Assembly: GCA_944359725.1 (NCBI GenBank)
Contig: CALVSY010000006.1
Coordinates: 1,876-65,875 of the forward strand
DNA: 64,000 nucleotides
Origin: an uncultured Bacilli bacterium
GTDB taxonomy: Bacteria; Bacillota_I; Bacilli_A; RF39; UBA660
Direction of reading: 5' to 3'
The translations under genes were made by a program, and so were the position numbers. Under the pieces are notes generated by a model. That model was not told where the DNA came from. It searched no databases and was given only the letters and a program-made list of their open reading frames with translations. Shown one piece after another: positions 2,511 through 26,771 of this stretch; position 1 is the stretch's first letter, and every line of letters begins with the position of its first letter.

Positions 2511-2515
2511 TTCCT

Positions 2516-8900: not shown

Positions 8901-8966
8901 GATTGATTAAAAATATATCATGATTTATATTATTTGTCAAATTAAACCTATAATGCCATATTATGA

Positions 8967-10163: not shown

Positions 10164-10240
10164 CTTCTATCTCCTTTATGATTTGTACAGTTAATTAAAT
10201 TACAATCATCAAAGCAATAATAGTAATAATCACTATCCAT
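10136..10240 (-). CDS. Putative Tyr-rich leader peptide MDSDYYYYCFDDCNLINCTNHKGDRRWKKKNKLI overlapping the tyrS start
   Basis: AAGGAGGTG SD with 8 nt from GGAGG to ATG; four consecutive Tyr codons. Confidence 0.65.
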   Translation of the reverse strand: MDSDYYYYCFDDCNLINCTNHKGDRRWKKKNKLI

Positions 10241-10257
10241 ACAAACCACCTCCTTGA

Positions 10258-10465
10258 AATAAAAAACGAGCAAACATCCAAAAGGACGAATTGCTCGTGG
10301 TACCACCTTTATTTGTAATAATAGCTTATTACCTCTTACCTATAACGGGATTATCCGATTTAAAATCATCATTTGTAATTCATTATTTTAATTGTACTTG
10401 TTTTCACCAGCCACAAGTTCTCTTTAAAACATTATAAAATAATTACTTCGAGTGAATCGCTTTTT
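10258..10465 (-). promoter_or_regulatory. T-box riboswitch, Tyr (UAC specifier)
   Basis: GAAU-UAC specifier (10377-10375), T-box AAAGGTGGTACCACG, terminator ACGAGCAA..TTGCTCGT-TTTTT. Confidence 0.9.
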
Positions 10466-10510
10466 AATTAACTTATACAAAGTTTAACATTATTTATAAT
10501 AGTTGTCAAA

Positions 10511-12919
10511 TCAAATTTCTAATTCAATTTCTTTTATATTATAATCATCATTAATAATACTTAAATTAAGTTCATCAATAAATAACGTTGCTTTAAAATC
10601 TTTTATTGATTTATCAATTGCATTTTTCAAATTATTAGATACTTCAATATTCATTTTCTTAATTGGTGTTTTTAACGAAACGTTATTATTTGTTTTAATA
10701 CCTCTTGCATAACTAATTATTTGCATAATTTGATCACCAAATTTAATTTCATCTTTAAAATCAAATTTAAGCTCTTTTATATTTGTTAAATGAATAGATT
10801 TGTTATCATGATATAAATCTTGATATATTTCTTCTGTTATATATGGGAAGAATATACTAAAATCTTGCAATAACTTATATAGTAGTATATAAATTGTTTT
10901 TTGACCAGAATATCTTGCTTTTTCTCCAAATTCTTCTGGTCTATATAATCTGTGTTTTACGATTTCAATATAATTATCGCAAAAGTTCCAAAAAAATTTT
11001 TCTAATACATTTAACCCCAATCCAATTTCATAATTATCTAAATATTTAATATATTCCTTTTCCATATTAGTGAAATTTCCTATAATCCATTTATCAATGT
11101 ATTCATAATCGTCAAATGGTTTATCTTTATAATCGGAAAGATGCATTTGAATAAACTTAGATACATTCCATATTTTATTAACTAATTTACGTCCTCTTTG
11201 TAAAGTTTCTTCACTAAATGTTATATCAGTACCTAGCCTTCCAGAAGCAGCCCAATATCTTACTACATCAGCTGAATATTGTTTTATAAGATCTAATGGT
11301 TCTACTTTAGAATTACCTTTACTTTTACTTATTTTCTCACCTTTGTTTGCCATTACAAATCCAGAAATCATAACATTTTCCCAAGGTTTAATACCAAAGT
11401 GATAAAAACTTTTAACTATGGTATAAAAATCCCATGTTCTTATTATTTCGGATGCATTTGTTCTTAAGCTCATTGGTTTTAATATTTGCTCATAATTATC
11501 TTTTTCACCATACTTCATGTTTATTAATGGAGTTACTGATGATGTTGCCCACGTATCCATTACATCTTTCTCTGGTATAAATTTTTTACATCCGCATTTA
11601 GGACATTTTTCTGTTAAGGGACTATCGATAAGAGGATTTACTGGAAGTTGTTCTTTTGAAGCAAAAATCGGTTCACCACAATCTTTACAATACCATACTG
11701 GAAATGGTACTCCAAAATATCTTTGCCTTGATATACACCAGTCCCAGGCAATATTGTTTACCCATTCATCATATCTATTATGCATATGTGAAGGGTACCA
11801 ATTAATTTCTTTTCCTATTTTTAAGAAGTCTTCCTTATGGTTCATTATATCAATAAACCATTGTTTCATTACTGCATATTCAACTTCTTTTCCACATCTT
11901 TCATGTGTTTGTACCTCGTGTTCTAGATCTTCAATCTTAACAATAAATCCGGCATTTTGAAGGTCATCTATTATCTGTTTTCTTGCTTCCTTTATTTTTA
12001 GACCACCATAATTAGGAACAGTGTCAATAATTTTACCATCATCAGTAAAAATATATTTTAATGGCAAGTTATATTTTTTCCACCACTCAATATCAGTTTG
12101 ATCACCAAAAGTGCAACACATAACAATTCCCGTGCCTTTATCCATTGCAACTTTTTCATCAGCCATGATTGGAACTTCTACATCAATCACAGGTATATGA
12201 GCTGTTTTACCAATTAAATGCTTATGTTCCTCATCATTAGGATTTACAAAAACACTTACTATTGCAGGAAGAAGTTCAGGTCTTGTTGTAGCTATTGTAA
12301 ATTCTTCACCATCTTCTACAGTTTTAAAATTAATATAATTAAAAGTCGTTTTAATTGTTTTTGGTTCAAGTTCTGCTTGTGCTATAGAAGTTAAACATTC
12401 ATTGCACCATAAAGCTGGACTTTCTTTATGATAACAGTATTCCTTTTTAATCAAATCAAGAAATGACAATTGACTTATCTTAATTGTGGAAGGACTAACT
12501 GTTTTATAATGCATGCTCCAATCAGTGCTTACTCCAAGTCTAGAAAACAAATCTTGAAATTCAGTTTCATATTTATCGGTTGTTTTGTAGCATAAATCAG
12601 AGAACTTTTCCCTACCTATTTCATGAGCTTTTTTACCTTGTTCTTTTTCTACTAACCTTTCACTCGGAAGTCCATTATCATCAAATCCAAATGGATAAAA
12701 TACGTTGTATCCTCTTATTCTTTTATACCTTGCAATCATTTCTGCTTGCGAATAAGAAAAAATATGTCCAATATGTATTTTTCCATTAACGGTTGGTGGA
12801 GGTGTATCTATTGAATATACTTTTCTATGATCTGGCTTAAATTCGTATATTTTATTTTCTTTCCAATAATTTAACCATTTTTCTTCTTTTTCAAGTGAAT
12901 TATATTTTTTATCTAACAT
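10511..12919 (-). CDS. valS: Valyl-tRNA synthetase copy 1 (short, archaeal-like type 2)
   Basis: DTPPPTVNG.IHIGH, ATTRPE, DWCISRQRYFG, KISKS; Val T-box upstream. Confidence 0.93.
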   Translation of the reverse strand: MLDKKYNSLEKEEKWLNYWKENKIYEFKPDHRKVYSIDTPPPTVNGKIHIGHIFSYSQAEMIARYKRIRGYNVFYPFGFDDNGLPSERLVEKEQGKKAHEIGREKFSDLCYKTTDKYETEFQDLFSRLGVSTDWSMHYKTVSPSTIKISQLSFLDLIKKEYCYHKESPALWCNECLTSIAQAELEPKTIKTTFNYINFKTVEDGEEFTIATTRPELLPAIVSVFVNPNDEEHKHLIGKTAHIPVIDVEVPIMADEKVAMDKGTGIVMCCTFGDQTDIEWWKKYNLPLKYIFTDDGKIIDTVPNYGGLKIKEARKQIIDDLQNAGFIVKIEDLEHEVQTHERCGKEVEYAVMKQWFIDIMNHKEDFLKIGKEINWYPSHMHNRYDEWVNNIAWDWCISRQRYFGVPFPVWYCKDCGEPIFASKEQLPVNPLIDSPLTEKCPKCGCKKFIPEKDVMDTWATSSVTPLINMKYGEKDNYEQILKPMSLRTNASEIIRTWDFYTIVKSFYHFGIKPWENVMISGFVMANKGEKISKSKGNSKVEPLDLIKQYSADVVRYWAASGRLGTDITFSEETLQRGRKLVNKIWNVSKFIQMHLSDYKDKPFDDYEYIDKWIIGNFTNMEKEYIKYLDNYEIGLGLNVLEKFFWNFCDNYIEIVKHRLYRPEEFGEKARYSGQKTIYILLYKLLQDFSIFFPYITEEIYQDLYHDNKSIHLTNIKELKFDFKDEIKFGDQIMQIISYARGIKTNNNVSLKTPIKKMNIEVSNNLKNAIDKSIKDFKATLFIDELNLSIINDDYNIKEIELEI

Positions 12920-12937
12920 TTCAATTCCTTCCTTTCA

Positions 12938-13165
12938 TAAAAAAAGTTCATCCTAATCAAAGGATGAACTTAAAGTCCACGGTACCACCTTAATTCATAT
13001 TATTTTATAATATGCAACTTGATACTTTAACGCAGTAATACGTAATTTCCTACTAATAGTTCAGAAAAAAATGCTCCCAAGCTACCTTCAATTACCTTTT
13101 ATGCAAATTCACACCAACCACTTGCTCTCTTTAATAAATTAATAATTTACTCCTCTTGTTCCCAG
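12938..13165 (-). promoter_or_regulatory. T-box riboswitch, Val (GUA specifier)
   Basis: GAAG-GUA specifier (13085-13083), T-box AATTAAGGTGGTACCGTG, terminator AAGTTCATCCT..AGGATGAACTT-TTTTT. Confidence 0.9.
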
Positions 13166-13239
13166 CAGATGTAAATATTATACCAATTTCTATTCATTTA
13201 TTCAAGAAAATTAAGTTGAATTTCAAAAAAAGATAAGTT

Positions 13240-15732
13240 TTACTGGTTTTTCTTATCTTTTTTGGCAAGTTTCATAATTTTTTGTTCTTCTTTAACTAAA
13301 TTTTCTGTCGATTCCTCTTGAACATAATTAACATCAATTTTTCTTCCAGTAATTGATACCTCTGTTATATCGCTTTTTTCAACATCTATATGTTTAGCAC
13401 TAGTACAACTTTGAATATCTAAAATCGAATCTCTTAAACATCTAATATTATCTAAAGATGTTGATATTTTTAATTCATCAATTGGTTCTTTCATTGATAA
13501 ATTACGCTCAGTTTTATATTTACGAACATCTCCAACAACCTTTTTCATTGCAGCACCAAATTCCATATACTTTTTATCAAAAGGTAGCTCTGCAAATTTA
13601 CTTGTAGAAAGAAGTTCTTCTTTAAGTTTAAATTTATATAGTTCTTGATAAATATATTCTGTAATATGTGGAACAAAAGGTGAATACATTTTTAATACTT
13701 CAAGAAATACAGTTGCTAAAGTTTGTTGAGCAGCTTTTTGAGACTCTCCGTATTTATTATCAGAGTTATATAATCTTTCCTTAGCCATTTCTAAATAGTT
13801 ATCACATAAATCATTCCAGAAAAATTTATCAATTTCTTGTCTTGCTAATCCCATTTCATAATTTTCCATTTGTTGTTGATATTTTTCGAACGTTTCATGG
13901 CATCTAGAAATTAGCCATTTATCAATAGATTGTAATTCTACATTTTGACTTAAATCAGCATCTTTAATATGCATGTCTACGAATTTAGCCGAATTCCATA
14001 GTTTATTCATAAATCTCTTTGAATTTTCTATATCCTTTGTATCAAACCATGTATCTGTTCCTAATTTGTTTGATGCAGTCCAATATCTTATCATATCTGC
14101 ACCATAAGTATCTAATAAATCATTTGGAGACATTTTAGCGTTATTTTTAGATTTACTTATTTTTTCACCCTTTTTAGCAAGTACAAATCCTGAAATCATT
14201 AAATCTTTCCATGGTACTTGTCCAGTGTGATATAAGCTCTTTACAATTGAATAAAATGTCCATGTTCTTATTATTTCATGTGCATGGCTTCGCATACTCA
14301 TAGGAAATAAAAATTTTCTTTCATCCTTCTCACCGTATTTCATGTTAATAAATGGCGATACTGATGAAGTAGCCCATGTATCCATTACAGCTGTTTCAGG
14401 TATAAATTCCTTGCATCCACATTTACAAGCACCATGTGGGCTATGTTCTAATGGGTTTAATGGCAATTCTTTATCTTCAGGTATCATCACATCTCCGCAA
14501 TCTTTACAATACCATACTGGAAATGGTACTCCAAAATATCTTTGTCTTGAAATACACCAATCCCATTTCAAATTGTTAACCCAATCTAAATATCTAGATT
14601 TCATAGATTCTGGATGCCAATTAATTTCATCAGCAGCTTTAATCAATTCATCCTTTATACTTAAAATATCAATATACCATTGTGGAGAATTAATTATTTC
14701 TATTTCATTTCCGCATCTTTCATGTGTGCTTACAGAATGTGTGATTTTTTCACTTTTTACTAATAAACCTTGTTTTTGTAATTCGTCAATAATTTTCATT
14801 CTTGCATCAAGTGTTTTCATACCACCGATTATAGCAACTTCTGGATTAATTGTTCCATCTGCTTGTATTATTTTTTTAATTGGAAGCTTGTACTCTTTTT
14901 GCCATTCCATATCTGTTTGATCTCCAAATGTACAACACATAACAACTCCTGTACCTTTGTCTATTGCAACTTTTTCATCTGCCATAATTGGAATTTGATT
15001 ATTATATAATGGAACCGTAGCAGTTTTTCCAATTAAATCTTTATATCTTTCATCATTAGGATTTACAAATATTGCAACACAGCCACATAAAAATTCAGGC
15101 CTTGTTGTAGCTATTTCTAAATCTTTATTATCTACTGAAAAATTAATGTAATTAAAATAACTTTTTACATCTTTATTTTCAAGTTCTGCTTGTGCTATAG
15201 AAGTTTGACAGCAAGGACACCATAATACTGGCATCTCCTTTCTATAAGCTTTTCCTTTTTTTAATAAATCTATAAATGACCTTTGTGAAACTTTTCTCGA
15301 TAAGACATTTATAGTATCATAACCTAAATCCCAATCAGCACTAATTCCTAAGCGTTTAAATAAATCTTGAAATTCTTTAATATATTTATCTTTTGTTGTT
15401 GTACATTTTTCAATAAATTCACTTCTAGGTAAATCTTTTGCAAATATACCTTCTTCCTTTTCAACCAATCTTTCTGTTGGCAAACCATTATCATCAAAAC
15501 CAAATGGATAATATACATTTTCTCCTTTTAACCTATGATACCTAACAAGCATCTCTGATTGCGTAAATGAAAATATATGTCCAACATGTAATTTACCACT
15601 TACTGTTGGAGGAGGTGTATCAACTGAATAAATTGGCCGATTATCCACACCTTTAAATTTATAAGCTTCTTTTTCTTCCCATAATTTTTGCACTTCTTTT
15701 TCATTTTCAAGAGTAAATCTTTTATTTAACAT
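13240..15732 (-). CDS. valS: Valyl-tRNA synthetase copy 2 (type 2), no T-box
   Basis: DTPPPTVSG.LHVGH, ATTRPE, DWCISRQRYFG, KISKS; clearly diverged paralogue of copy 1. Confidence 0.92.
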   Translation of the reverse strand: MLNKRFTLENEKEVQKLWEEKEAYKFKGVDNRPIYSVDTPPPTVSGKLHVGHIFSFTQSEMLVRYHRLKGENVYYPFGFDDNGLPTERLVEKEEGIFAKDLPRSEFIEKCTTTKDKYIKEFQDLFKRLGISADWDLGYDTINVLSRKVSQRSFIDLLKKGKAYRKEMPVLWCPCCQTSIAQAELENKDVKSYFNYINFSVDNKDLEIATTRPEFLCGCVAIFVNPNDERYKDLIGKTATVPLYNNQIPIMADEKVAIDKGTGVVMCCTFGDQTDMEWQKEYKLPIKKIIQADGTINPEVAIIGGMKTLDARMKIIDELQKQGLLVKSEKITHSVSTHERCGNEIEIINSPQWYIDILSIKDELIKAADEINWHPESMKSRYLDWVNNLKWDWCISRQRYFGVPFPVWYCKDCGDVMIPEDKELPLNPLEHSPHGACKCGCKEFIPETAVMDTWATSSVSPFINMKYGEKDERKFLFPMSMRSHAHEIIRTWTFYSIVKSLYHTGQVPWKDLMISGFVLAKKGEKISKSKNNAKMSPNDLLDTYGADMIRYWTASNKLGTDTWFDTKDIENSKRFMNKLWNSAKFVDMHIKDADLSQNVELQSIDKWLISRCHETFEKYQQQMENYEMGLARQEIDKFFWNDLCDNYLEMAKERLYNSDNKYGESQKAAQQTLATVFLEVLKMYSPFVPHITEYIYQELYKFKLKEELLSTSKFAELPFDKKYMEFGAAMKKVVGDVRKYKTERNLSMKEPIDELKISTSLDNIRCLRDSILDIQSCTSAKHIDVEKSDITEVSITGRKIDVNYVQEESTENLVKEEQKIMKLAKKDKKNQ

Positions 15733-15767
15733 GACTATTTTCCCCCTTTAAAATAAGATTGTTTTAT

Positions 15768-15795
15768 ATTATAACATAAATTTAACTATAGTCAA
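15768..15795 (-). promoter_or_regulatory. sigmaA-type promoter of valS copy 2
   Basis: TTGACT-16 bp-TGnTATAAT, about 35 bp upstream of the ATG. Confidence 0.65.
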
Positions 15796-16009
15796 TTAAA
15801 CTTTATAAAACTTATTAAATAACTTGATTATTATATATTTTTTTTATAAAACTAATATTTTATGTTATTTATTTAATTTTTTATATTTTACTAACTATTA
15901 TTTTTTAAATACAATTTCACATGTTTTCTTGCAATCTTTTGTTATATCTAGTTTTTATTTTTTTTACTTTATTCAAAACATTAAAGTTATGAGCACACAA
16001 TTGCTTTTA

Positions 16010-16954
16010 TCATATTTTCTTAAAATAATTATCTATATAATTAACAATTTTATCTAATTTAATTTTATCAGTTTTAAATAATTCTGGAATGTTAGTTTTA
16101 ATTGGCATCTTTGTACCGGCTCTCATTCCTTCTTCTAAAAATATCCCCATTATAGGATTTACCTCGAGAACATATATTTTTTGATCTTCTTCTGATAAAA
16201 TCATATCAACAATAGTTGTTGTTACATTAAGTATTTTAGCAGCTTTTAATGCTATTTTTTTGAATTCATCTGGTACAATAATATCTTCCATTGAACCTCC
16301 AGAAGAAATATTTGTTTTATATGTTCCACATTTACTACGACAATACGTTCCAATAACCTCACCATTAAATACCTCCACCCTATAATCATGAGATTCAAAA
16401 GGAATATATTTTTCTAAATAATAATCCTGAATAAATAATTTTGTAGCTTCATAAAAATCACAAAACAACTCATAATTATCAATCTTAATTATCCCTTTGC
16501 CACCATGATTTGTCCTTGGCTTTATAATTACAGTTTTCCATTCATCTATTATTTTTTTTAATTCTTTTTTTGTAAGTTTATTATTAATCAACATAGAAGG
16601 AGGAACTAAAATACCGCTTTTTCGTAATAATAAATTGCTTATAACCTTATCTTTACAATATATAAATGATTGATAATCGTTAAATACATGGACACCCGAC
16701 AATTCTAATAATCTTAAAATATCATTTTGATATTGATTTTGTTCATCAGCATTCATGTGATAAAATATGTCAACATCAGATAAACAATATCCATCTTTTG
16801 TATACACTTTTCCGTTTTTCAAATAACACTCTCTCATATCAAAATTTGAGTAAACTTCATATCCTTTTCTCTCTAACGTCGAAACTAGCTTTTTCTTAAT
16901 ATTTATTCCATTGTCATTTTCATACATCCAAATACCGACTTTCTTTTTATCCAT
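16010..16954 (-). CDS. RimK/GshB-like ATP-grasp ligase
   Basis: CKDK, IIKPR..HGGKGI, DYRV, KTNISSGG, VLEVN; start at the ATG at 16954 after GGAGG. Confidence 0.85.
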   Translation of the reverse strand: MDKKKVGIWMYENDNGINIKKKLVSTLERKGYEVYSNFDMRECYLKNGKVYTKDGYCLSDVDIFYHMNADEQNQYQNDILRLLELSGVHVFNDYQSFIYCKDKVISNLLLRKSGILVPPSMLINNKLTKKELKKIIDEWKTVIIKPRTNHGGKGIIKIDNYELFCDFYEATKLFIQDYYLEKYIPFESHDYRVEVFNGEVIGTYCRSKCGTYKTNISSGGSMEDIIVPDEFKKIALKAAKILNVTTTIVDMILSEEDQKIYVLEVNPIMGIFLEEGMRAGTKMPIKTNIPELFKTDKIKLDKIVNYIDNYFKKI

Positions 16955-18089
16955 TGTTCGCCTCCATATATTTTTCTTCACCATATTTTCTCATTTTTAA
17001 TCCTCTAATGCTTAATTCTATTAATTTTTCATTTGTTATTTTTCCATTGTCATTTAAATATTCTAATATTTCTAGATGATTCTTACATATGCCAACATTA
17101 AAAGCAATTAATTTAAATATATTCTCTTTGGATTGTGTACAATCACTTCTAATTTCTAAAGTGCCATATTTTGTTAATTCAACACTTTTATATGAACGAA
17201 AATAATCAAAATCTGAATACACAGGTACTATATAATGAATTTGTCCATTTTCATCAGTAGTTTTAATTCTTTTCTTGAAAAGATATTCATTTACTGACTG
17301 TTTTTTATTAAATAATAAGTATTTTTTATTTCTTTTAACAAAAAATAAATTTCTTTTTAAATAATCATTAATTAATTCATCTAAATTTTTGTAGTTAGAA
17401 TTTATGCCTATATTTAAAGGGCCAAAATTACTATTTTCCCATAAATATTTTCTACTGTTTTTCAACTTTGTTTCTTCCATATATGAATTTGAGAACATCA
17501 TTATTTTGTTATTTTCCACCTTCGATAGCATATTTATTAAATTTACAATGTTATCTTTAGAAGTATTAATATGAGTCTGAATACTGCAACAATAAGAACA
17601 AAATTGATTATATAATTTATTATTATTATTGGATAATAGTCTTTCAATAACTTTATATCTATCTTGATTTAAACTACTTTTATCTATGCAATGATAATTA
17701 GGATTTATACCTCCGCAATAAATCTCATACTCATATTTTTTTAAGTGTTCTTTAATGAAACTGTAGTACATTTCAAATTTTTCTTGTAATTTATCAATTT
17801 TTAATTCCTTACCTAATGACAACTCTATTGTATTAAATGAATATTCTAGAGATATGGTATCGTTAGTTTTTATATTTTTTATTGAAATAATATTTTCTTC
17901 ATTATCATAGTTTTCAACTCTAAAATCATTATTATTAAGAAAATTTAAAAATAATTCTTCCACTACATAATTATCAACTATATAAGGAGTATTTAAATTG
18001 ATTATTGGCATTTCAATTTCAACGCCTACATAATCACTTTCCTTAAATTTATCAATATAATTTTCAATAAAATATTGCTTTGCTTCCAT
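16947..18089 (-). CDS. Glutamate-cysteine ligase (GCS2/GshA)-like carboxylate-amine ligase
   Basis: VGVEIEMP, SLEYSFNTIELS, SIQTHIN, GTLEIRSDC. Confidence 0.75.
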   Translation of the reverse strand: MEAKQYFIENYIDKFKESDYVGVEIEMPIINLNTPYIVDNYVVEELFLNFLNNNDFRVENYDNEENIISIKNIKTNDTISLEYSFNTIELSLGKELKIDKLQEKFEMYYSFIKEHLKKYEYEIYCGGINPNYHCIDKSSLNQDRYKVIERLLSNNNNKLYNQFCSYCCSIQTHINTSKDNIVNLINMLSKVENNKIMMFSNSYMEETKLKNSRKYLWENSNFGPLNIGINSNYKNLDELINDYLKRNLFFVKRNKKYLLFNKKQSVNEYLFKKRIKTTDENGQIHYIVPVYSDFDYFRSYKSVELTKYGTLEIRSDCTQSKENIFKLIAFNVGICKNHLEILEYLNDNGKITNEKLIELSIRGLKMRKYGEEKYMEANNG

Positions 18090-18108
18090 AAGAATACCTC
18101 ATTAAAAG

Positions 18109-18966
18109 CTACTTTCGTACCTGATTATAAGAATTGCATCCTTTACAAACCGGCATTTTTTTTAATACTTTTACTCTTTCTGCTACAAAATCTGTATTAT
18201 CATTTACATTACATATTTTAGTTAAATTTTCAAAATCTTGAAAACAGCCAATCATTTCTCCTTTATAATTTATAAAAATACTTGTATCTCCGATAGGACA
18301 GTAATTTGGATTTTTCAAATCTCTAACCTTTGTTTCATCTAAATATTCATCTTCTGAATAAAAAATATTATATTTTTCTATAAGTTTATTTCTTAAATCT
18401 AAAATCTCTTCTTCTTCAACATTACCACCTCTATTCCATAAAGGAAATAAAAAAATATTATTAACATCATTTGATTTGAAAAATGATATAGTTTTTTCTA
18501 ATGTAGGATATGTCTCCTGACCACCAACTAAATGAATATGTAACTTTTGAGGATTGTACTTTACCAATTTATTAATATTTGACCAAATTTTATCATAACT
18601 TAATCCTCTATGAATTTTTTTGAAAACTTGTTCATCTATTGAGCTAACTGATACTCTCATAATATCCAATTCATCAAGTAATTGTTTATATGTATTATCA
18701 TTAATTCCGTCAGTTGTTGTTACAACTGATATTGTTGTTTCTAATGCTTTTAATTTTCTTATAATATCTATTAATTGAGGATGAAAAGTAGGTTCTCCTC
18801 TTCCAGAAATTGAAATTTCAAATAATAAATAATCTTTTACTTTTTCCATTAATTTATCAACAGTTTGTAAAGAAATATACCCATAGTCGTTAACACAATC
18901 TCTAGGACACATACTGCAATTGGCATCACAATAAGAGGTTGCCTCTAAATTTAATAATCTCTCCAT
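18109..18966 (-). CDS. Radical SAM protein with SPASM/twitch-like C-terminal cysteines
   Basis: CDANCSMC (CxxxCxxC), GRGEP, C-terminal CP...GC...C...CKGC. Confidence 0.88.
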   Translation of the reverse strand: MERLLNLEATSYCDANCSMCPRDCVNDYGYISLQTVDKLMEKVKDYLLFEISISGRGEPTFHPQLIDIIRKLKALETTISVVTTTDGINDNTYKQLLDELDIMRVSVSSIDEQVFKKIHRGLSYDKIWSNINKLVKYNPQKLHIHLVGGQETYPTLEKTISFFKSNDVNNIFLFPLWNRGGNVEEEEILDLRNKLIEKYNIFYSEDEYLDETKVRDLKNPNYCPIGDTSIFINYKGEMIGCFQDFENLTKICNVNDNTDFVAERVKVLKKMPVCKGCNSYNQVRK

Positions 18967-18976
18967 AAAATCCCTC

Positions 18977-19942
18977 CTATTTTGTTAATTTTCTATATAA
19001 AGTTTTGCACTTTGAACAATTTTGACAATTTTTAATACAATTCGCTTTTTGTTCAAACAATGAATTCAATTGGTCATTTGGTAAATTTATAAATTCACTA
19101 AATTCTTTATCAACAATTTCTACTAAATTTCCATGATATGATTCAGTTGAGTATGCATGTATCATCTTTAACAAAGTTTCTTCATTAGTCGTTCTTCCAA
19201 CTAATTTGAACATATCACTAATCCCTTCATATTCTTTTAGATCTTCTGGTCGTACAACATTATTTGTTAACATCATATAAGGTTTTTTCTCATATAAGTT
19301 CGTACAACTCATTGCATAGTCTAAATCATATCCCCTTCTATCTGCGTGTGATAAAGAGTTTTGATGAAATCTTCTCCAAGGACAGTCTCCTAAACAAGCT
19401 TCATTAACTAATAATGACAATTTAGCTCTTTTTAAATTTGATTTTATTTTTTTCAGTTGATCTAAATCATAATTAATAGATGATGATGGAACTATTACAT
19501 CAGCTCCCATATCTTCATAATATAATGCACCACGTGGAGTATTAATGTCACAAATTATTGATGCAGCTATACTCAAGTTTGTATTTTCTTTTGCAAGAGA
19601 CATTATAAATGGATGAGCAATAATAACAGTATCAACTCCAATTGACTCTAAATGTTTCAAATATTTTTTTACATTTTCCCACCATTGTTTTTCCGAAAGA
19701 GGAGGAACATTACATGGTGAATTTAAAGTTACAGCTAGTCTTGAATTTTTATCATGAACAGCTTTAACTATTTTTTCCAGTTCTTGTTCACTCTCACTAT
19801 GCTGATACCTTCCACTAGTTACTTCTTTAAGATAACCTCCTGTATAAAGCGTCCCTATTTTATTCTCTTTATCTTCATACATCTTTTCTAATAGGTCAAG
19901 ATTCCCATTAAATCCTACTGATAATTTATATTCCATATTCAA
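18977..19942 (-). CDS. U32 peptidase-family (Fe-S hydroxylase-like) protein
   Basis: LLVNEACLGDCP, VRPEDL..Y, FKLVGR, C-terminal CxxxCxxCxxC. Confidence 0.8.
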   Translation of the reverse strand: MNMEYKLSVGFNGNLDLLEKMYEDKENKIGTLYTGGYLKEVTSGRYQHSESEQELEKIVKAVHDKNSRLAVTLNSPCNVPPLSEKQWWENVKKYLKHLESIGVDTVIIAHPFIMSLAKENTNLSIAASIICDINTPRGALYYEDMGADVIVPSSSINYDLDQLKKIKSNLKRAKLSLLVNEACLGDCPWRRFHQNSLSHADRRGYDLDYAMSCTNLYEKKPYMMLTNNVVRPEDLKEYEGISDMFKLVGRTTNEETLLKMIHAYSTESYHGNLVEIVDKEFSEFINLPNDQLNSLFEQKANCIKNCQNCSKCKTLYRKLTK

Positions 19943-19948
19943 ACCTCC

Positions 19949-21127
19949 TTATATTTTTAAATTATCTATTATATTGAAGAAATAATCTATTTCTTCTTCA
20001 GTATTATAAAATTGCAATGATATTCTTATTCCTCCTTTTTCTTTAACACTATTATATAATGGCTGACAACATTGATAACCAGAAGAAACGCAAATATTAG
20101 CAGAATCAGATAAAATTTTTGCAACATAATTTAGATTTAAATTCTTATTTTTTAATTTAAAAGTAAAAATTGGGGCATGATTTTTAGAAATCGGAAAAAT
20201 CAATTCAATATTTTTACTTGTTAATACTTTTTTATAAAAATAATCATTTAATTCCTTATTCCTTTTTGTAATATTGTCATAACCATACGATAAATAATAT
20301 CTTATTGCACTTGCAAACCCTAATATATTTTCTATTGCAGGTGTTCCTGCTTCAAAACAATATGGAATTTCTTTATATATAATATCTTCATTATTAATAA
20401 TCCTATCAACCATTCCACCACCATATTTTGCTTTTTTACACTTTAATAATAATTCTTTTTTACAATATATTATACCTAAGCCACTTGGTCCACACATTTT
20501 ATGAGCGGATAAAGTTAAAAAATCACAATCAATATCTTTTACATTTATTTTATAATGTGGTGCAAATTGACAACAATCCAGATTTACAAGAGCTTTATAA
20601 TTATGAGCTATTTTACAAATTTCTTTAATTGGTTGAACATTGCCTGTGACATTTGATAAAGCTGTTACACTTACTAATTTGACTTTATTTTCTTTTAATA
20701 ACTTTTCTAATTCTATTAAATTTATTGTACCATCATCATTTAAATCAACAGTTAATATATTCGCATTATTTAACCAAGGAAGAAAATTCGAATGATGTTC
20801 TAACATTGAACAAATAACTTTATTTTTTTTATTTATATTTAACATTCTTACAAGCTGATTTATTGAATCAGTACAATTTGAAGTAAAAATAATTTCTCTA
20901 GGGGAACAATTTAGTAATGTTGCAACAAGTTCTCTAGTTTCATCTATTTTTAACGAAACATATTCAGAATTAATATAACTACCTCTATACGCATTTGAAG
21001 TATATTTTGTATAAAATTCCGTAATACTATCTAGTACACTATATGGTTTCAAAGAAGTTGAAGAATTGTCAAAATAAATAATATTGCTTTTTAACATAGG
21101 AAAATCTTTTCTTATATCTTGTTTCAT
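19949..21127 (-). CDS. SufS-like PLP cysteine desulfurase / C-S lyase (class V aminotransferase)
   Basis: YFDNSSTS, EHHSN, SAHKMCGP, FEAGTP, SGYQCCQP. Confidence 0.88.
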   Translation of the reverse strand: MKQDIRKDFPMLKSNIIYFDNSSTSLKPYSVLDSITEFYTKYTSNAYRGSYINSEYVSLKIDETRELVATLLNCSPREIIFTSNCTDSINQLVRMLNINKKNKVICSMLEHHSNFLPWLNNANILTVDLNDDGTINLIELEKLLKENKVKLVSVTALSNVTGNVQPIKEICKIAHNYKALVNLDCCQFAPHYKINVKDIDCDFLTLSAHKMCGPSGLGIIYCKKELLLKCKKAKYGGGMVDRIINNEDIIYKEIPYCFEAGTPAIENILGFASAIRYYLSYGYDNITKRNKELNDYFYKKVLTSKNIELIFPISKNHAPIFTFKLKNKNLNLNYVAKILSDSANICVSSGYQCCQPLYNSVKEKGGIRISLQFYNTEEEIDYFFNIIDNLKI

Positions 21128-21130
21128 TGA

Positions 21131-22279
21131 TTATATTCCTCTTTTTAAAATGGAAAACTTTCCTGACATCTCTGGTGATATTTCTTCAACTTTACTAAAT
21201 GTTATTGAAATATTTAATCCCATATCTTTAAGTTTATTAGTTATATACTCTCTCTCTGATTCTAACATTTCAGAGTTATCGAATGTTATATACTTAAAAT
21301 TGCATATATTTTTATCAATAAAATAAAATTGATAAAGTAATATTTTGTTAGAAACGCTACTAATAATATCATCGAGCATTGAGAGCGATATTTTATTATC
21401 AATCAAATCTTTTTCTCTTCCAGCCATTTTACTTACAATTCCAACTTTGTCAAAGTTTTCGTATTCGTCTGATGTGGCTTGAACAAGGTCCCCAACTTTA
21501 TAATTTAAAAGTGGCATATATTCATTTTTATAGCTGTCTATTATTATTGAGTAAATATTATTATTTTTATCGTCATTAATTGGTAAAAGTTTTATATTAA
21601 TTAAATCTTTGCAAATACGCATTTTCCCTTTCTCATTCTCAAGGAAAACATATCCAAATTCAGTAGTCCCATATAAATTTCTGATGTCAGTTTTAAAATA
21701 ATTTGAAATATAGTTTCTAAGATTATCTGTAACATATTCATAACTTAACGTGATAATTGATGGAGTGAAAATTTTAGTTTTAATTTTGTATTTTTCTTTT
21801 AAATATAAAAATACTGCAAGATAAACTGGATCCGCGTCTAAATAATAAGGTTTGAAATAATTTATTTCATTTATTATTTCTTGCACATTCTCTTTTGTCC
21901 AATCCCAGGGATTAAAAGTATTATTTACATATAATGTAGTTCCGATAGTTCTCTCTTCCATTGACGGTTTTTCTACAAAGCATACCAAATTTGAACATTG
22001 AGCAGTTGTAAAAATAACTTTATGTAATTTTTCCTCCAAATATTTTTCTAATTTTTTTTCATATGAGTAAGTTCTTTTGTATTCATCTTTCCACCAATTT
22101 GGTTTTCTTATTATTTCCATTCTATCAGATGTCGTTCCAGAAGTTGTTGCATACTCATATTCTATGCCTTCTTTTATTTCAAAATTATGTGGAAAATTCG
22201 ATACTATATCTTTTTTGGTCAAATACTTATTAACTTGATTCTTATAAATTGGTAAACTTAAGATTGCTTTTTTATCCAT
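21131..22279 (-). CDS. Phenylacetate-CoA ligase / F390 synthetase-like adenylate-forming enzyme
   Basis: TTSGTT, YGTTEFG, MPLLNYKVGD, GREKD, SGKF. Confidence 0.82.
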   Translation of the reverse strand: MDKKAILSLPIYKNQVNKYLTKKDIVSNFPHNFEIKEGIEYEYATTSGTTSDRMEIIRKPNWWKDEYKRTYSYEKKLEKYLEEKLHKVIFTTAQCSNLVCFVEKPSMEERTIGTTLYVNNTFNPWDWTKENVQEIINEINYFKPYYLDADPVYLAVFLYLKEKYKIKTKIFTPSIITLSYEYVTDNLRNYISNYFKTDIRNLYGTTEFGYVFLENEKGKMRICKDLINIKLLPINDDKNNNIYSIIIDSYKNEYMPLLNYKVGDLVQATSDEYENFDKVGIVSKMAGREKDLIDNKISLSMLDDIISSVSNKILLYQFYFIDKNICNFKYITFDNSEMLESEREYITNKLKDMGLNISITFSKVEEISPEMSGKFSILKRGI

Positions 22280-22970
22280 TATTTGCCTCCTCTATGAATT
22301 TCTTTATAACATTAATATAATCACCATAGTTATTTAAGCATTTCTCTATATGTCCTTGAAATGCGACTATAAATATTTCATCAAAATATTCTATGGCTTC
22401 AATAACACCATCAGAAGCAGTGGCTGATACAACTAAAGATTTACCTAATTTATCTATTGCTTGATGATGCACCGAAGAAATAGTGTAATTAGTTTTAGAT
22501 ATTAATTTTTTTAACTTAGTATTATTTTTAATTTCTATTTCATGATAATTAATCCAACCATCCATACCAATTTTATGTTCTATTTTACTGCTATCAATAT
22601 TTTTTAAAGTGCCTCCTTCAGCAACATTTATTATTTGCAGTCCTCTACAAATACCTAATATTGGTTTCTTATTTTTTTTGAAGTAATTATATATTTCAAT
22701 TTCAAAATTATCTCTTGGATTCTTACTTTTTTGCCCTAAGTAACAATTACTAGAAACATCCTCGCCACCTATTAATAACAAAGCATCAAATTTATCCACA
22801 ATCGGTTTTAACGAATCAAATGTATTTGTATTTGGAATAATGATTGGAACACCACCACACCTATATATCATATTTAAGTAATCATCATTTACATTATGAA
22901 TTGGCTTTTTATATATTCCTTTTTCAATGTATTCTCTATTTGAAACTATCCCTATTATTGGTTGACTCAT
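22272..22970 (-). CDS. Gamma-glutamyl hydrolase, peptidase C26 (PuuD-like)
   Basis: GGEDV, LGICRGLQ, HHQAI, QGHIE. Confidence 0.88.
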   Translation of the reverse strand: MSQPIIGIVSNREYIEKGIYKKPIHNVNDDYLNMIYRCGGVPIIIPNTNTFDSLKPIVDKFDALLLIGGEDVSSNCYLGQKSKNPRDNFEIEIYNYFKKNKKPILGICRGLQIINVAEGGTLKNIDSSKIEHKIGMDGWINYHEIEIKNNTKLKKLISKTNYTISSVHHQAIDKLGKSLVVSATASDGVIEAIEYFDEIFIVAFQGHIEKCLNNYGDYINVIKKFIEEANNG

Positions 22971-23042
22971 TGTTTTCCTCCTATTCCATTATATACTGTA
23001 ACATTTATACTTTTTGGTTTTGCATTTGTTAATATTTTAAGT

Positions 23043-24488
23043 CTATTTCCTATTGAACTCTCTTATTCTTCTTTTCGCATACGTCGTAACTGCTTTGTCT
23101 TCCCAATCTTCTCTTGGACCAAATGATAAATCATCTGTTATTATTCTTACTCTATCTTTATTTTTAAGTGGCTTATCAACATCTACATACTCATCATTTA
23201 CGATAGCAGCTACCATGGTATTACCAATATCAGTATGTATTTTATAGGCAAAATCTATCGGTGTTGCACCTACCGGTAATTCAACTATTTCTCCTTTAGT
23301 TGTGTATACATATATTTTATTTGAGAATAATTCATTTTTCACTTGATAGACAAACTCTTTATTATCCCCAAAAACTTTATCCATTTCAACTAGTGATGTA
23401 AAAAATTGATATTTATCTTTTAGTTCTTGTTGCATAACTTCTCTTGCATTTCCTTTTTCAATATCCCAGTAAGTTGATAATCCAAACGATGCTACTTTAT
23501 CCATATCAAACGTTCTTATTTGTGTTTGTACTAATCTATCGTCTGGTGCAAATACGGTTGTATGAAGTGATCTGTACATGTTTGTTTTTGGATTGCATAT
23601 AAAGTCTTTAAACTTGCCATTTACCGGATTATATTTGCTGTGAACAAGTCTTAATGTTTGATAACAATTATTAACCGTATCAACCATTACTTTAAGCGCT
23701 AATAAATCATGTATGTCAGATATTTTTCCGCCTTCATTTAACTTTTTATATATTCCATATATGTTTTTAGTCCTTACCTTTATTTCATTTGGAATTGCTT
23801 CATCATCAAGCATACTTTGTATCGTTTGTAACATTTCTTTTAAGCATGATGCACTTTCTTCTTCAATCCTTGTTTTCTTTTCCCCAATCTTTTTATACAT
23901 ATCAGGTTTTAAATACCTAAGTGATAAATCCTCTAATTCTTGTTTTATTCTATATGCTCCAATGTAATATGCCATAGGAACAAATATCTCAAGTGTTTCT
24001 AGAGCATTTTCTTTTTGTTTGAATTCACTTTTAAACCCTAGCGTTCTCATGTTATGAAGCCTATCAGCTAACTTTATTAAAATAATTCTAACATCATTTG
24101 TTATACTCGTTATTATTTTTCTTGTGTTAGCTAGATTCTGATCTTGCTTTGATGAAAAGTTCATCTTACTTATCTTTGTTACTCCATCAACCAAGTTTGC
24201 AACATCACTGTTAAAATTCTCTGCAATTTCTTCTTTAGAAATATTAGTATCTTCTAAAGTATCATGTAAAAGACCTGCACATACCGTATCTGAATCCGCT
24301 CTTAATTCTGCTAATATGTAAGCTACATTTAACGGATGGATTATATAAGGTTCTCCGCTTTGCCTTTGCTGTCCTTGATGAAGTGTGTTTGCCATATTAT
24401 ATGCTTTTTTTATTTTTTCAACTTCATCTGGGTTGTATGATTTAATAATATCTATTAAATCATTAACATCTAAACTTTCTTTACTCAT
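23043..24488 (-). CDS. Short RelA/SpoT homologue (HD + synthetase-like + TGS; no ZFD or ACT)
   Basis: RQSGEPYIIHP, LLHDTLEDT, KLADRLHNMRTL, YRSLHTT, TPIDFAY.IHT. Confidence 0.9.
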   Translation of the reverse strand: MSKESLDVNDLIDIIKSYNPDEVEKIKKAYNMANTLHQGQQRQSGEPYIIHPLNVAYILAELRADSDTVCAGLLHDTLEDTNISKEEIAENFNSDVANLVDGVTKISKMNFSSKQDQNLANTRKIITSITNDVRIILIKLADRLHNMRTLGFKSEFKQKENALETLEIFVPMAYYIGAYRIKQELEDLSLRYLKPDMYKKIGEKKTRIEEESASCLKEMLQTIQSMLDDEAIPNEIKVRTKNIYGIYKKLNEGGKISDIHDLLALKVMVDTVNNCYQTLRLVHSKYNPVNGKFKDFICNPKTNMYRSLHTTVFAPDDRLVQTQIRTFDMDKVASFGLSTYWDIEKGNAREVMQQELKDKYQFFTSLVEMDKVFGDNKEFVYQVKNELFSNKIYVYTTKGEIVELPVGATPIDFAYKIHTDIGNTMVAAIVNDEYVDVDKPLKNKDRVRIITDDLSFGPREDWEDKAVTTYAKRRIREFNRK

Positions 24489-24509
24489 AAAACACCTCCT
24501 TTATATAAC

Positions 24510-24558
24510 AAAAAGGCAGCAACTCACAAGGTCATGCGACCTTAAAAGTTACTGCCTT
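24510..24558 (-). terminator. Intrinsic terminator/attenuator directly upstream of the Rel gene
   Basis: AGGCAGUAACU..AAGGUC-GCAU-GACCUU..AGUUGCUGCCU followed by a U-run. Confidence 0.7.
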
Positions 24559-24562
24559 AAAG

Positions 24563-24661
24563 TTATTTAATTAAGAAGCAGAATAAGCATAAGAAAATTA
24601 AGCTAACGAATTTGCTAGCTAAAAATATTTTATTATTAGAAAGCAAGCTTTTATTTCTCAT
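24563..24661 (-). CDS. Putative 32-aa leader peptide MRNKSLLSNNKIFLASKFVSLIFLCLFCFLIK
   Basis: AAGGAG SD; TTGACA-17-TAATTT promoter; stop codon 4 nt before the attenuator hairpin. Confidence 0.55.
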   Translation of the reverse strand: MRNKSLLSNNKIFLASKFVSLIFLCLFCFLIK

Positions 24662-24792
24662 GCTACCAACTCCTTAAAATATTTTAAATATAAATTACTC
24701 TTTATTTTAAATGCTGTCAAGTATTTTTTGACAATTTTTTCCAATTTTTTATTTTTTATTATTAATATTAGTAATTAATTTATATTTTTTAC

Positions 24793-25371
24793 CTACTTAT
24801 TAATAACCTCATTTAAAATTATCTCAGCTTTCTTAACAAAATAATTTCCCTTTTCATATGGTAAATCATACTCGTCAAATTCATTTATCATATCTTTTAT
24901 ATCTTCATATTTTTTATTTATGTACTCTGGTTCATCTTCCATTTCAATAAAAATATATTTATTATTTACAAGCTCTACTACTAACTCTGTTTTATCATTA
25001 CAATAAACAATACACTTATCATAAATCTTAAAAAGTGATTTATAACCAATCGCATTCATAAAATCAAGAGCTTTTTTGATATCAAAAACAGGGCACTTTA
25101 TTTTTCCTTGCTCTAATATATTACCATTATCATCATACTTTTTATATTTATATAGTAATTGCTTTTCAATTCCAACGATGTCTCTTATTAAAACACACTT
25201 GCTTAAAATTTCTAAATTACTCATCTTATTTAATTTCTGTTTACCATCTATTAAATAATCATCATTTATTTCATATTCTTCTTTAATTATAAAACCTTTA
25301 TCTTTTAGTATTTTATCTAAAGTTTTATAATCACAAGTTATTTTTACAGTTATTTCTTTTTCTAATTTCAT
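24793..25371 (-). CDS. CYTH (adenylate cyclase/triphosphatase-like) domain protein
   Basis: N-terminal EKEITVK motif and FIEME. Confidence 0.65.
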   Translation of the reverse strand: MKLEKEITVKITCDYKTLDKILKDKGFIIKEEYEINDDYLIDGKQKLNKMSNLEILSKCVLIRDIVGIEKQLLYKYKKYDDNGNILEQGKIKCPVFDIKKALDFMNAIGYKSLFKIYDKCIVYCNDKTELVVELVNNKYIFIEMEDEPEYINKKYEDIKDMINEFDEYDLPYEKGNYFVKKAEIILNEVINK

Positions 25372-25973: not shown

Positions 25974-26771
25974 TTAAGATCCAACTGATTGATATTTTTT
26001 CATGCCTAACTTAAAAGCTAAAAAGCATGGAATTAAATATATAAACACAATTAATGGTGAAAATGCATACAAAGCGTTATTACTTTTACCTATAAAGTAT
26101 AAAAGTGGATAATAATTAACAAATGCATATGGAATTATAAAGGTAAAAAATAATACGAATCCCTTTTTAAATACTCCTATTGGATATTGTGCCATGTGTT
26201 TGCCACCATCAGTAAATACGTTTCTTACCTCTAAACCTTGAATGGTTATAAAACAATAAGATGCTGCAAGTAAAAAGATTCCAAAGAAAATTACTACCGC
26301 ACTTATTATCATAAGAATTAAAGTAATTACTTTTAAAGGTGTTATAGTAACATGTAAATTAACTAGTGCAATAACCATTACGATAACCGCTTGAATAAGT
26401 CTTGATATTTTAATAAAGTCAGCATCTGATGATAAAACTTGAACGATTATGTTTTTAGGTCTTAAAAGAAGTCTATCAAAATCACCGGTAATTATTAACC
26501 TATCAAACTTATCTATACCTCTTGCAAACGTCTCACAAAAAGCATATCCGAATTGAATTATTGAAAAGCAAAGTAAAACTTCGTATAAAGTAAATCCTTT
26601 AATGTTATCAAACTTATCAAATAATGCAAGAATAATAAAATAGTATGAGAAGAAAACTATTATTTGAGATAAGAATGCTATTATAAAAGATGCTTTATAC
26701 TCTAGCATTGACTTTAAATGCATTGATAATGATTTTACATATAACCTCATATTAACCTCCTTGAATAACAA
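25974..26771 (-). CDS. ABC-2 type transporter permease
   Basis: GDFDRLLLRP, QYPIGVF, multiple TM segments. Confidence 0.88.
   Translation of the reverse strand: MLFKEVNMRLYVKSLSMHLKSMLEYKASFIIAFLSQIIVFFSYYFIILALFDKFDNIKGFTLYEVLLCFSIIQFGYAFCETFARGIDKFDRLIITGDFDRLLLRPKNIIVQVLSSDADFIKISRLIQAVIVMVIALVNLHVTITPLKVITLILMIISAVVIFFGIFLLAASYCFITIQGLEVRNVFTDGGKHMAQYPIGVFKKGFVLFFTFIIPYAFVNYYPLLYFIGKSNNALYAFSPLIVFIYLIPCFLAFKLGMKKYQSVGS

Follow-up and report, generated by a model that had tools for sequence, protein, structure and literature searches.

A conserved seven-gene operon with sulfur and gamma-glutamyl enzymes lies beside extra valyl-tRNA synthetase genes in uncultured Bacilli

We describe a seven-gene operon (g1 to g7) in a 64,000-nucleotide stretch of DNA from an uncultured Bacilli bacterium (contig CALVSY010000006.1 of assembly GCA_944359725.1; the whole stretch is called the window), together with the valyl-tRNA synthetase (ValRS) genes that adjoin it. 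With high probability the seven genes constitute a genuine conserved small-molecule pathway, and the best explanation of the island is a horizontally spread accessory cassette of gut anaerobes that makes a small sulfur-containing acyl-amino-acid or peptide and brings its own ValRS. We lean slightly towards a ValRS link that is functional and not merely historical; the more specific version, in which ValRS is the target and the extra gene gives self-resistance, is a tentative suggestion. In the labels used below L### denotes a related locus, G### a genome (G000 being that of the window) and C## a contig.

The seven open reading frames (ORFs) are co-directional on the minus strand and span exactly 16010-22970 (ORF list). 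All are intact, with intergenic gaps of 3-19 nt and two overlaps (8 nt between g1 and g2, 38 nt between g6 and g7), so that the seven tightly coupled genes of the initial annotation, which was made from the sequence alone, are real. The window has a base composition of about 25% G+C with uniform skew, and its genome is of 1.21 Mb with 28% G+C and uses translation table 11. The genes are:

22272..22970, minus strand: g1, class-I amidotransferase-like / Peptidase C26 gamma-glutamyl hydrolase (232 aa)
21131..22279, minus strand: g2, PaaK/CapK-family adenylate-forming ligase (382 aa)
19949..21127, minus strand: g3, SufS-type class-V pyridoxal-phosphate (PLP) enzyme, cysteine desulfurase-like (392 aa)
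18977..19942, minus strand: g4, U32-family protein, accessory (321 aa, TTG start)
18109..18966, minus strand: g5, small radical S-adenosylmethionine (SAM) enzyme with one C-terminal auxiliary-cluster motif, twitch/SPASM-like (285 aa)
16947..18089, minus strand: g6, carboxylate-amine ligase of the plant-type glutamate-cysteine-ligase fold, GCS2 superfamily (380 aa)
16010..16984, minus strand: g7, RimK/LysX/MptN-type ATP-grasp ligase (324 aa)

Protein families were scored against the curated cut-offs of Pfam and NCBIfam, and the folds of g2 and g6 come from AlphaFold-type models built on the alignments of their relatives and then matched to structures. None of the seven operon proteins reached a curated NCBIfam cut-off. 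For g1 the Pfam match is Peptidase_C26 (PF07722, 1.6e-47), the best NCBIfam match is PuuD (78 bits against a cut-off of 266), and the catalytic triad Cys108/His207/Glu209 is invariant in 17 relatives. No Pfam family was found for g2, whose model (pLDDT 93.4) matched PaaK-family AMP ligases, with 4rvn as the best (E 4.3e-15) and BT_0428, ClxA (9s45), PaaK1 (2y27), NatL2 (6tm4) and AjiA1 among the matches at E of about 1e-14, although the identity to these structures is only 11-17%. Its adenylation motifs (SGT/YGxTE/SGK-type) are invariant in relatives, a CSxxxC motif is nearly so, and its Atlas neighbours carry CapK_C or AMP-binding domains. g3 is an Aminotran_5 protein (PF00266, 4.3e-105) that scores 352 bits with SufS (TIGR01979, cut-off 475), and both its PLP Lys210 and the SufS persulfide cysteine Cys353 are invariant among relatives. 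As this cysteine is kept, the sulfur may arrive as a persulfide instead of by C-S lysis of a cysteine conjugate. A second and more canonical SufS (444 bits) is present in G000 on contig C8; that locus was considered as a second copy of the pathway and rejected, the C26-like gene there being a CTP-synthase-like glutaminase beside a housekeeping SufS. g4 matches Peptidase_U32 (PF01136, 2.7e-13, 50.2 bits against a cut-off of 22.4) and its Atlas neighbours are 88-100% Peptidase_U32; it falls in no characterised U32 subfamily (UbiU NF047963, 15.6 bits against 440), and a second NCBIfam scan gave nothing at 1e-3. g5 matches Radical_SAM (PF04055, 3.2e-15), its CX3CX2C motif and Cys223/241/274/277 are invariant across relatives, and its best NCBIfam matches, TIGR04317 (76.7 bits), spiro-SPASM and MoaA (57 bits), are all far under their cut-offs. 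For g6 the GCS2 match in Pfam is merely 0.0013 (18.5 bits against a 21-bit cut-off), other sequence-level matches are weak and none with TIGR01436 is listed; its model (pLDDT 94.5) is closest in fold to 2gwc, a glutamate-cysteine ligase of plants (E 1.5e-16, TMq 0.80), with YbdK next. Finally, g7 matches RimK (PF08443, 6.4e-20) and secondarily GSH-S_ATP (7.7e-9), with NCBIfam scores of 123 bits for TIGR00768 (cut-off 143), 114 bits for MptN as second-best, 60 bits for CofF and 35 bits for GshB (TIGR01380, cut-off 299), and its closest solved relatives by PDB sequence search are RimK, LysX and ArgX. Six family assignments of the initial annotation (C26, acyl-adenylate ligase, PLP enzyme, U32, glutamate-cysteine-ligase-like and ATP-grasp) therefore hold by Pfam and NCBIfam, or by fold for g2 and g6. 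Of its radical SAM-SPASM call, the first half stands and the second does so in part: the g5 of the window has no Pfam SPASM match, has the four extra invariant cysteines, and has a relative in L012 that matches SPASM PF13186. Its view of the set as uncharacterised also stands, since no NCBIfam equivalog cut-off was reached and a literature search matched no characterised pathway.

A precursor-like small ORF or an exporter was found nowhere inside the operon (ORF list and small-ORF search), in agreement with what had been noted at first. There is no conserved gene for a precursor of a ribosomally synthesised and post-translationally modified peptide, the operon gaps hold no plausible small ORF, and the small ORFs of related loci are unconserved or apparently wrong-frame calls. 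The small-ORF search also gave no LysW-like carrier ORF in or beside the operon.

To see how far the gene set extends, consider first the g6 family, which comprises 93 clusters at 44% identity or more, after which identity falls to about 30%. A scan with the g6 alignment, one genome per species, gave 50 loci. All of g1, g2, g3, g5, g6 and g7 are present in 7 of them (L001-L007), and U32 too in 5 of these 7. L012 has g3, g5 and a g6-like gene only; of the remaining 42 loci, 40 have only a g6-like gene and two (L047, L048) have nothing above the 40% coverage filter. For g2 there are 54 representative relatives at E <=1e-30, and a metagenome scan, for which the alignment of 10 closer rows was used, gave 49 loci. 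At least one further operon gene adjoins g2 in 44 of the 49, and the five without one (L084, L098, L105, L108, L112) are all of 4.6 kb or less. The co-occurrence elsewhere on which the first proposal depended is thus found in both scans. The loci, on gut and environmental contigs, fall into five diverged groups with shuffled gene order, in every one of which g1, g2 and g3 keep together:

Group A: window type, g1 to g7
Group B (L006, L007, L079, L080): without U32
Group C (L083): order g3-g5-g6-g7-g1-g2
Group D (L087-L115, one near-identical set): g6-g1-g2-g3-g5-U32-g7, then a flavin-reductase-like gene
Group E (L085, L086, L103, L106, L109, L110): genes partly on opposite strands

The U32 gene (g4) occurs in groups A and D only and in none of B, C and E; the group D contig also bears an UpxY antiterminator. 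In comparisons of the window with L001 and L002 (for g7 with L001 only), dN/dS is 0.06-0.16 for g1-g7. Among 301 genomes sampled from the order of the window, which include 8 of the same genus, g2 is found in one, the window's own, and such sporadic occurrence points to a mobile accessory pathway. Taken with the purifying selection, the distribution across the groups argues for an accessory pathway that is selected and horizontally distributed. Relatives also carry genes which the window does not have: a second radical SAM gene and a 3-deoxy-D-arabino-heptulosonate-7-phosphate (DAHP) synthase gene, each in 12 related loci and both missing from the window, and a B12-radical SAM gene in 3 related loci. 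None of the three has a homologue in G000 except for a weak (28%) partial match of the B12-radical SAM gene.

The distant group E is of use in reading the chemistry. The place of g6 in L086 is taken by a genuine glutamate-cysteine ligase, which scores 516 bits with TIGR01436 (cut-off 463) and fits the gamma-Glu-Cys logic proposed in the initial annotation. The same locus carries a major facilitator superfamily (MFS) efflux pump, a DdaF-like ligase, three GNATs and an aromatic-amino-acid hydroxylase, and L106 has an aromatic-amino-acid transporter and a peptide permease. The anaerobic setting claimed at the outset is plausible from the radical SAM and U32 enzymes; L086, distant as it is, has the aromatic-amino-acid hydroxylase and no U32. 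Two observations were made on group B contigs. Upstream of the island on one metagenome contig (L079:540-4730) are a nonribosomal peptide synthetase (NRPS; condensation, adenylation, carrier, reductase) and a two-component system. In L080 (7071-7606) the interval from the ValS2-like gene (see below) to g1 contains a thioredoxin gene together with a small ORF; the latter has a weak match to the ferredoxin-thioredoxin-reductase catalytic chain (E 6e-4, below cut-off), and genes of this type would fit thiol/disulfide chemistry.

The enzyme families also bring to mind the modification of a tRNA or rRNA base or the synthesis of a pterin- or folate-like cofactor. U32 hydroxylases act on RNA and quinones, C26 includes the hydrolase that removes gamma-glutamyl groups from folate, and the tRNAs that are hydroxylated at U34 include tRNA-Val(UAC). 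Here g4 is a confirmed member of the U32 family, and g7 scores with MptN and CofF, as g5 does weakly with MoaA. Yet these scores all lie far under the curated cut-offs, U32 is missing in 3 of the 5 groups, and no RNA-binding domain was found among the operon proteins with Pfam. Also the sporadic distribution, with the exporter, permease and GNATs of the distant relatives, is better fitted by a secreted specialised metabolite than by a core cofactor. We consider a cofactor or nucleoside role very unlikely, and the modified nucleoside that the initial annotation had listed among its products is not borne out, given the lack of an RNA-binding domain and the MFS exporter, peptide permease and DdaF-like ligase of distant relatives.

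The gene observation of the initial annotation stands and its interpretation does in part, but it missed what is the most telling feature, the ValRS linkage just beyond its coordinates. The features concerned are:

13240..15732, minus strand: ValS1, extra archaeal-type ValRS directly downstream of g7, without a T-box (NF009687, 1011.8 bits against a cut-off of 738)
10511..12919, minus strand: ValS2, second archaeal-type ValRS, T-box controlled (NF009687, 1000.9 bits)
12957..13172, minus strand: T-box leader of ValS2 (RF00230, 140.2 bits against a gathering score of 93)
15768..15795, minus strand: promoter-like site before ValS1, TTGACT-16-TATAAT with TG (11/12 consensus positions)

ValS1 begins 277 nt past g7, is about 52% identical to ValS2, has intact PPP/HxGH, DTW and KISKS motifs and shows a dN/dS of 0.07-0.11. 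Group A loci whose sequence extends far enough have it immediately after the operon, and ValS1 and the operon occur together in G000, G301 and the group A loci. T-box leaders stand before ValS2 and before the TyrS and MetS genes of the window, with none before ValS1 or the operon (Rfam); over 15600-25000 no leader or riboswitch for either gave an Rfam match, even at E 0.1. There is no terminator-like site between g7 and ValS1, nor between g1 and the short RelA/SpoT homologue (Rel) upstream of it. The promoter-like site of ValS1 is weak evidence, because in this AT-rich DNA such sites are no commoner than in shuffles.

G000 has three ValRS genes, namely ValS1, ValS2 and a bacterial type on contig C26. 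Among 30 relatives a single bacterial-type match is found in 27 and none in 1, and in 2 (G301, G315) ValS1 and ValS2 are also present; the L005 genome showed ValS1 and ValS2 alone and no further housekeeping copy. Of 398 other genomes scored in the class, 7 have an orthologue of ValS2 (69-82% identity). In all 5 ValS2-only genomes tested ValS2 is the sole ValRS-like PF00133 match, the other PF00133 matches being tentatively ascribed to IleRS, LeuRS or MetRS by size and match pattern. The more distant groups are linked with ValRS in ways of their own. In group B the operon is followed by an amino-acid-type ATP-binding cassette (ABC) importer (PF04392, BPD_transp_2), a tRNA-Val(UAC) and an extra ValRS of another kind, ValSx. 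This protein falls in the ValS2 clade of the tree and apart from ValS1, a placement made uncertain by the long branch on which the tree is rooted. An alt_ValS (NF000540, 1102 bits) adjoins the operon divergently in group C, and in group D a bacterial-type ValRS lies about 0.9 kb upstream, with Bacteroidales and Flavobacteriales enzymes as its nearest named relatives (53-57% identity). ValS1 and ValSx beside the operon mean that groups A and B carry a ValRS in addition to the ValS2-type copy.

How these genes came to lie here can be followed in the relatives, where a resident bacterial-type valS has been broken at codon ~273, within the GTGCVKITPAHD motif, by a block with archaeal-type valS genes, and the halves survive in different relatives. 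The remnants are:

L080:2584-3558: after a T-box, an ORF for residues 3-273 of bacterial-type ValRS, ending just past ...DFGTGCV, its stop codon sharing bases with the start codon of a ValS2-like gene
L006:12699-14521: C-terminal part (residues 267-857, starting GCVKITPAHD, one frameshift), after ValSx and a 111-aa ORF
L078:3705-3989 and 19576-20190 (group A): degraded pieces of the N-terminal part, reaching to residue 273, immediately ahead of ValS2, and a C-terminal piece (Anticodon_1 end and ValRS C-terminal arm) immediately after ValS1
L072:11350-12144: C-terminal remnant after ValS1
L060:4591-5283: C-terminal remnant after ValS2, in a genome (G013) without g2

Since remnants are found on both sides, the block from ValS2 through the operon to ValS1 or ValSx sits inside the old valS. 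ValS2 took over the T-box of the old gene, and it can fill that place alone. No valS remnants were seen in the window, where the order differs (operon, ValS1, T-box, ValS2) and an intact bacterial-type valS is present elsewhere in G000. Also, N-terminal remnants were looked for in the 545-1229 nt spacers between T-box and ValS2 of L059, L060, L061 and L065, and all matches there had E >0.06 and were not significant. The region between Rel and ValS1 is itself a variable one. In G315 (L117, G315:C1:116000-135900) it holds, at 8335-14129, a 6-kb sugar-modification set in place of the operon (a family 2 glycosyltransferase, a split nucleotidyl-transferase, a 4,6-dehydratase and a DegT aminotransferase), and upstream of this slot are a Mob_Pre relaxase and a Bro-N gene.

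These findings bear directly on an explanation by locus history only. On this account the operon makes a metabolite unrelated to ValRS (a low-molecular-weight thiol, a thioacid metallophore or a signalling peptide), and the operon came to rest in a variable block which had earlier invaded the resident valS and taken its place; the ValRS genes of the island would ensure survival of the cell and, as a side effect, may hinder loss of the block. The valS fragments of L080, L006, L078, L072 and L060, the role of ValS2 as sole ValRS-like gene in the 5 ValS2-only genomes, and the G315 slot with its sugar-modification genes and upstream relaxase all speak for it. Likewise the window-type TyrRS is a sporadic accessory copy in the genus, from which it follows that extra aminoacyl-tRNA synthetase (aaRS) genes are common here without any gene cluster. 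What this account leaves unexplained is the further ValRS beyond the replacement copy in groups A (ValS1) and B (ValSx), as well as the other ValRS types beside the operon in the far more distant groups C and D; moreover, ValS1 is under purifying selection, as are the operon genes. We regard history alone as the main rival, rather unlikely but not far behind the leading reading. The self-resistance reading is favoured because an extra ValRS is present beyond the replacement copy in two groups, other ValRS types adjoin the operon in two more, and G000 has the duplicate synthetase that was used as a marker in the tiarin work. That preprint (10.64898/2025.12.02.691738) takes an aaRS in a biosynthetic gene cluster, with a second housekeeping copy, as the mark of either self-resistance or a tRNA-dependent step.

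We infer the chemistry of every step from the enzyme families and the gene order. First, g6 would link the gamma-carboxyl of glutamate to an amino acid, by analogy cysteine, and g7 would then append a further residue; a role of g7 as extender is suggested by analogy with its nearest relatives RimK, LysX/ArgX and MptN, which add or use glutamate. On the gamma-glutamyl scaffold g5, helped by g4 (U32) where present, could carry out O2-independent C-H chemistry. g3 would give sulfur as a persulfide or else cleave a cysteine conjugate, and g1 would strip the gamma-glutamyl handle. In the last step g2 would adenylate a carboxylate, of aryl type if its nearest structures are a guide, to yield an amide or ester or, in concert with g3, a thioacid. 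Hints that the building block is an aromatic acid come from the nearest structures of g2, the DAHP-synthase gene in relatives and the aromatic-amino-acid genes of group E. The product or an intermediate may impede valine activation, as a ValRS inhibitor or a valine antimetabolite. ValS1, at the 3' end of the operon and without a T-box, would be the insensitive copy of the producer, and the T-box-controlled ValS2 a second copy induced by starvation; the orphan ValS1 of G315 and the ValS2 of non-producers might be immunity genes retained or gained without the pathway. As a whole this scheme, in which the operon makes an NRPS-independent sulfur-containing acyl-peptide, the product or an intermediate interferes with ValRS and ValS1 confers immunity, strikes us as plausible, if somewhat short of probable.

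A number of points weigh against it. The ValRS linkage of groups A and B does have a historical explanation, as the block lies inside the resident valS and ValS2 alone replaced valS in operon-less genomes. ValS1 keeps all the motifs checked and shows only four lineage-specific changes at otherwise conserved positions (I37V, V221I, D317E, D448A), none of them within a known pocket motif. No ValRS is seen in L086 and L106, the group E loci that extend about 10 kb into the flanks. G315 keeps the Rel...ValS1-ValS2 arrangement, its ValS1 being 93% identical, without the operon, so that ValS1 is not strictly tied to the pathway. As the second radical SAM and the DAHP synthase are missing from the window, its product may be simpler than that of the relatives. 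In the literature, the passages on ValRS in one review (PMC7916415) name no natural ValRS inhibitor, and a search for ValRS with self-resistance and a biosynthetic gene cluster found no paper.

The tRNA gene of group B raises two further uses for a ValRS at this place. It is a canonical tRNA-Val(UAC) with A73 and an encoded CCA, lies directly upstream of ValSx and is identical in L006 and L079 (ARAGORN); L080 has a cut-off tRNA match at the same place. ValS1 or ValSx, in group B with this tRNA, might thus furnish Val-tRNA as an activated valine donor for biosynthesis. There is precedent in valanimycin biosynthesis, where a cluster-borne SerRS supplies aminoacyl-tRNA, and the tiarin preprint (10.64898/2025.12.02.691738) gives tRNA-dependent steps as the other known reason for an aaRS in a gene cluster. 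But among g1-g7 no enzyme of the Fem/GNAT, CDPS (cyclodipeptide synthase) or LanB type, the families that use aminoacyl-tRNA, was found with Pfam and NCBIfam, and the GNATs of the window are at least 12 kb away. The pathway already has three ATP-dependent ligases, G315 has an intact ValS1 without the operon, and the window has no tRNA gene. A tRNA-dependent step is accordingly improbable. In the other use, a make-and-charge cassette in the manner of pyrrolysine, the radical SAM enzyme, desulfurase and ligases would build a sulfur-bearing valine analogue (e.g. a beta-thiolated valine on the gamma-glutamyl scaffold). ValS1 or ValSx, in group B together with the tRNA-Val of the island, would load this analogue for insertion by the ribosome at some valine codons. 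Canonical ValRS motifs and a canonical tRNA lean against this, and we give it only the faintest chance.

Returning to the reading of ValRS as target, its meaning, if true, would be a natural product aimed at valyl-tRNA synthetase and made by uncultured small-genome gut commensals. It would also account for archaeal-type valS genes spreading among these bacteria at the expense of the resident one, rather as the occurrence of resistant IleRS copies follows that of mupirocin. Even if the ValRS link is historical, there remains a widely transferred, NRPS-independent and apparently O2-independent sulfur route with an enzyme set unmatched to characterised pathways, and a block that splits an essential gene while bearing its replacements, an uncommon route to fixation for an island.

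Other genes in the neighbourhood are as follows:

23043..24488, minus strand: short RelA/SpoT homologue, Rel (HD, synthetase and TGS only, 481 aa; TIGR00691, 530.6 bits)
8967-10163: TyrS, T-box-controlled (T-box 10279-10469)
6979-8604: MetS, T-box-controlled (T-box 8653-8900)

Rel lies 72 nt upstream of g1 and is kept there in the group A loci, an HD_4-only protein being at this position in L079. The 1.2-Mb G000 has three RelA/SpoT homologues, the other two on contigs C2 and C12. The TyrRS and MetRS of the window are extra copies, second genes on C17 and C18 being only 28-29% identical. The C17-type TyrRS is found across the genus, and the window type (at least 77% identity) in 3 of 30 other genus genomes, some with 2-3 copies; the complement of spare aaRS genes varies among these 1-Mb genomes. 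Upstream of the operon are an ABC-F protein (28669-30315; 31% identical to another copy on C11) and an ABC-2 type transporter (25974-28532), which are not kept beside the operon in relatives. Further away in the window are two large adjacent ORFs (35501-38564; 568 and 458 aa) with no Pfam family, beside two Peptidase_S51 genes, and a phage-type integrase (42555-43505). The region 1372-5342 holds three GNATs (one of RimL-like Acetyltransf_3 type), an MA-superfamily peptidase, a PNP_UDP_1 phosphorylase and a PBECR3 nuclease-like gene, and an Rfam PGK RNA motif (RF03040, 88.3 bits) is on the minus strand at 56422-56514.

Among known systems, a full-text literature search found nothing relevant for a characterised pathway with this enzyme set. 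The matches for gamma-glutamyl, C-S lyase, radical SAM and ATP-grasp terms were O2-dependent thiohistidine pathways without this gene set (among them PMC13674229, as far as its available text goes) and were set aside. The nearest schemes for sulfur are those of ergothioneine (EgtA/B/C/E) and of plant glucosinolates and camalexin, which share with the operon a gamma-Glu-Cys-type ligase fold (g6), a gamma-glutamyl hydrolase (g1) and a class-V PLP enzyme (g3). GGP1 of plants presumably belongs to the same C26 family as g1. As described in part of one paper (PMC6243137), GGP1 and GGP3 cleave gamma-Glu from glutathione conjugates before the C-S lyase SUR1 acts. The ergothioneine route itself, on which the initial annotation had drawn, does not fit: EgtB and EgtD are not among the seven proteins or their immediate neighbours (Pfam, NCBIfam), the hydrolase g1 is of class-I C26 and not of EgtC type, and g3 reaches only 61.1 bits with EgtE (TIGR04343) against a cut-off of 400. 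When g6 is tested as an EgtA-type ligase, it has the plant glutamate-cysteine-ligase fold with weak sequence matches. The operon differs from both schemes in having no glutathione S-transferase, in that a radical SAM enzyme would have to form the C-S bond, and in its ligases g2 and g7, which have no counterpart there. Glutathione synthesis (GshA and GshB) is similar in that an enzyme of the glutamate-cysteine-ligase fold (g6) is followed by an ATP-grasp (g7), but g7 is nearer to RimK/LysX/MptN and five more enzymes are conserved with the g6-g7 pair.

For the other enzymes the likenesses are more partial. The best structural matches of g2 include ClxA, NatL2 and AjiA1, PaaK-family amide or ester ligases of benzoxazole pathways, but those pathways have an amidohydrolase partner that is not found beside g2, and G000 has no DAHP synthase. 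The closest solved relatives of g7 belong to the LysX/ArgX-LysW and RimK systems, and the idea of a glutamyl handle taken off by a dedicated hydrolase would be common to both; however, no LysW-like carrier was found here and the hydrolase is C26, not of the M20 LysK type (LysK belongs to the M20 family). g4 has the U32 domain of the O2-independent hydroxylases TrhP, RlhA and UbiU/UbiV and stands outside the characterised subfamilies. The pyrrolysine cassette pylTSBCD likewise sets radical SAM and ATP-grasp enzymes beside a dedicated aaRS, with a tRNA gene as in group B, although the group B tRNA is a canonical tRNA-Val(UAC), the ValS1 motifs are canonical and the window has no tRNA gene. Lastly, the clusters for mupirocin, indolmycin, albomycin and agrocin 84 carry a resistant copy of the aaRS target. 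With tiarin-type clusters the window shares an aaRS at the cluster edge and, at another place in the genome, a further aaRS for the same amino acid. It differs from aaRS-resistance clusters in its unrelated biosynthetic enzymes, in its two extra ValRS genes and in a resident valS that is physically split in relatives. Overall, the sulfur logic of the operon resembles that of Egt and of GGP1/SUR1, and its proposed resistance logic resembles that of the aaRS-inhibitor clusters, with unrelated enzymes and a new target.

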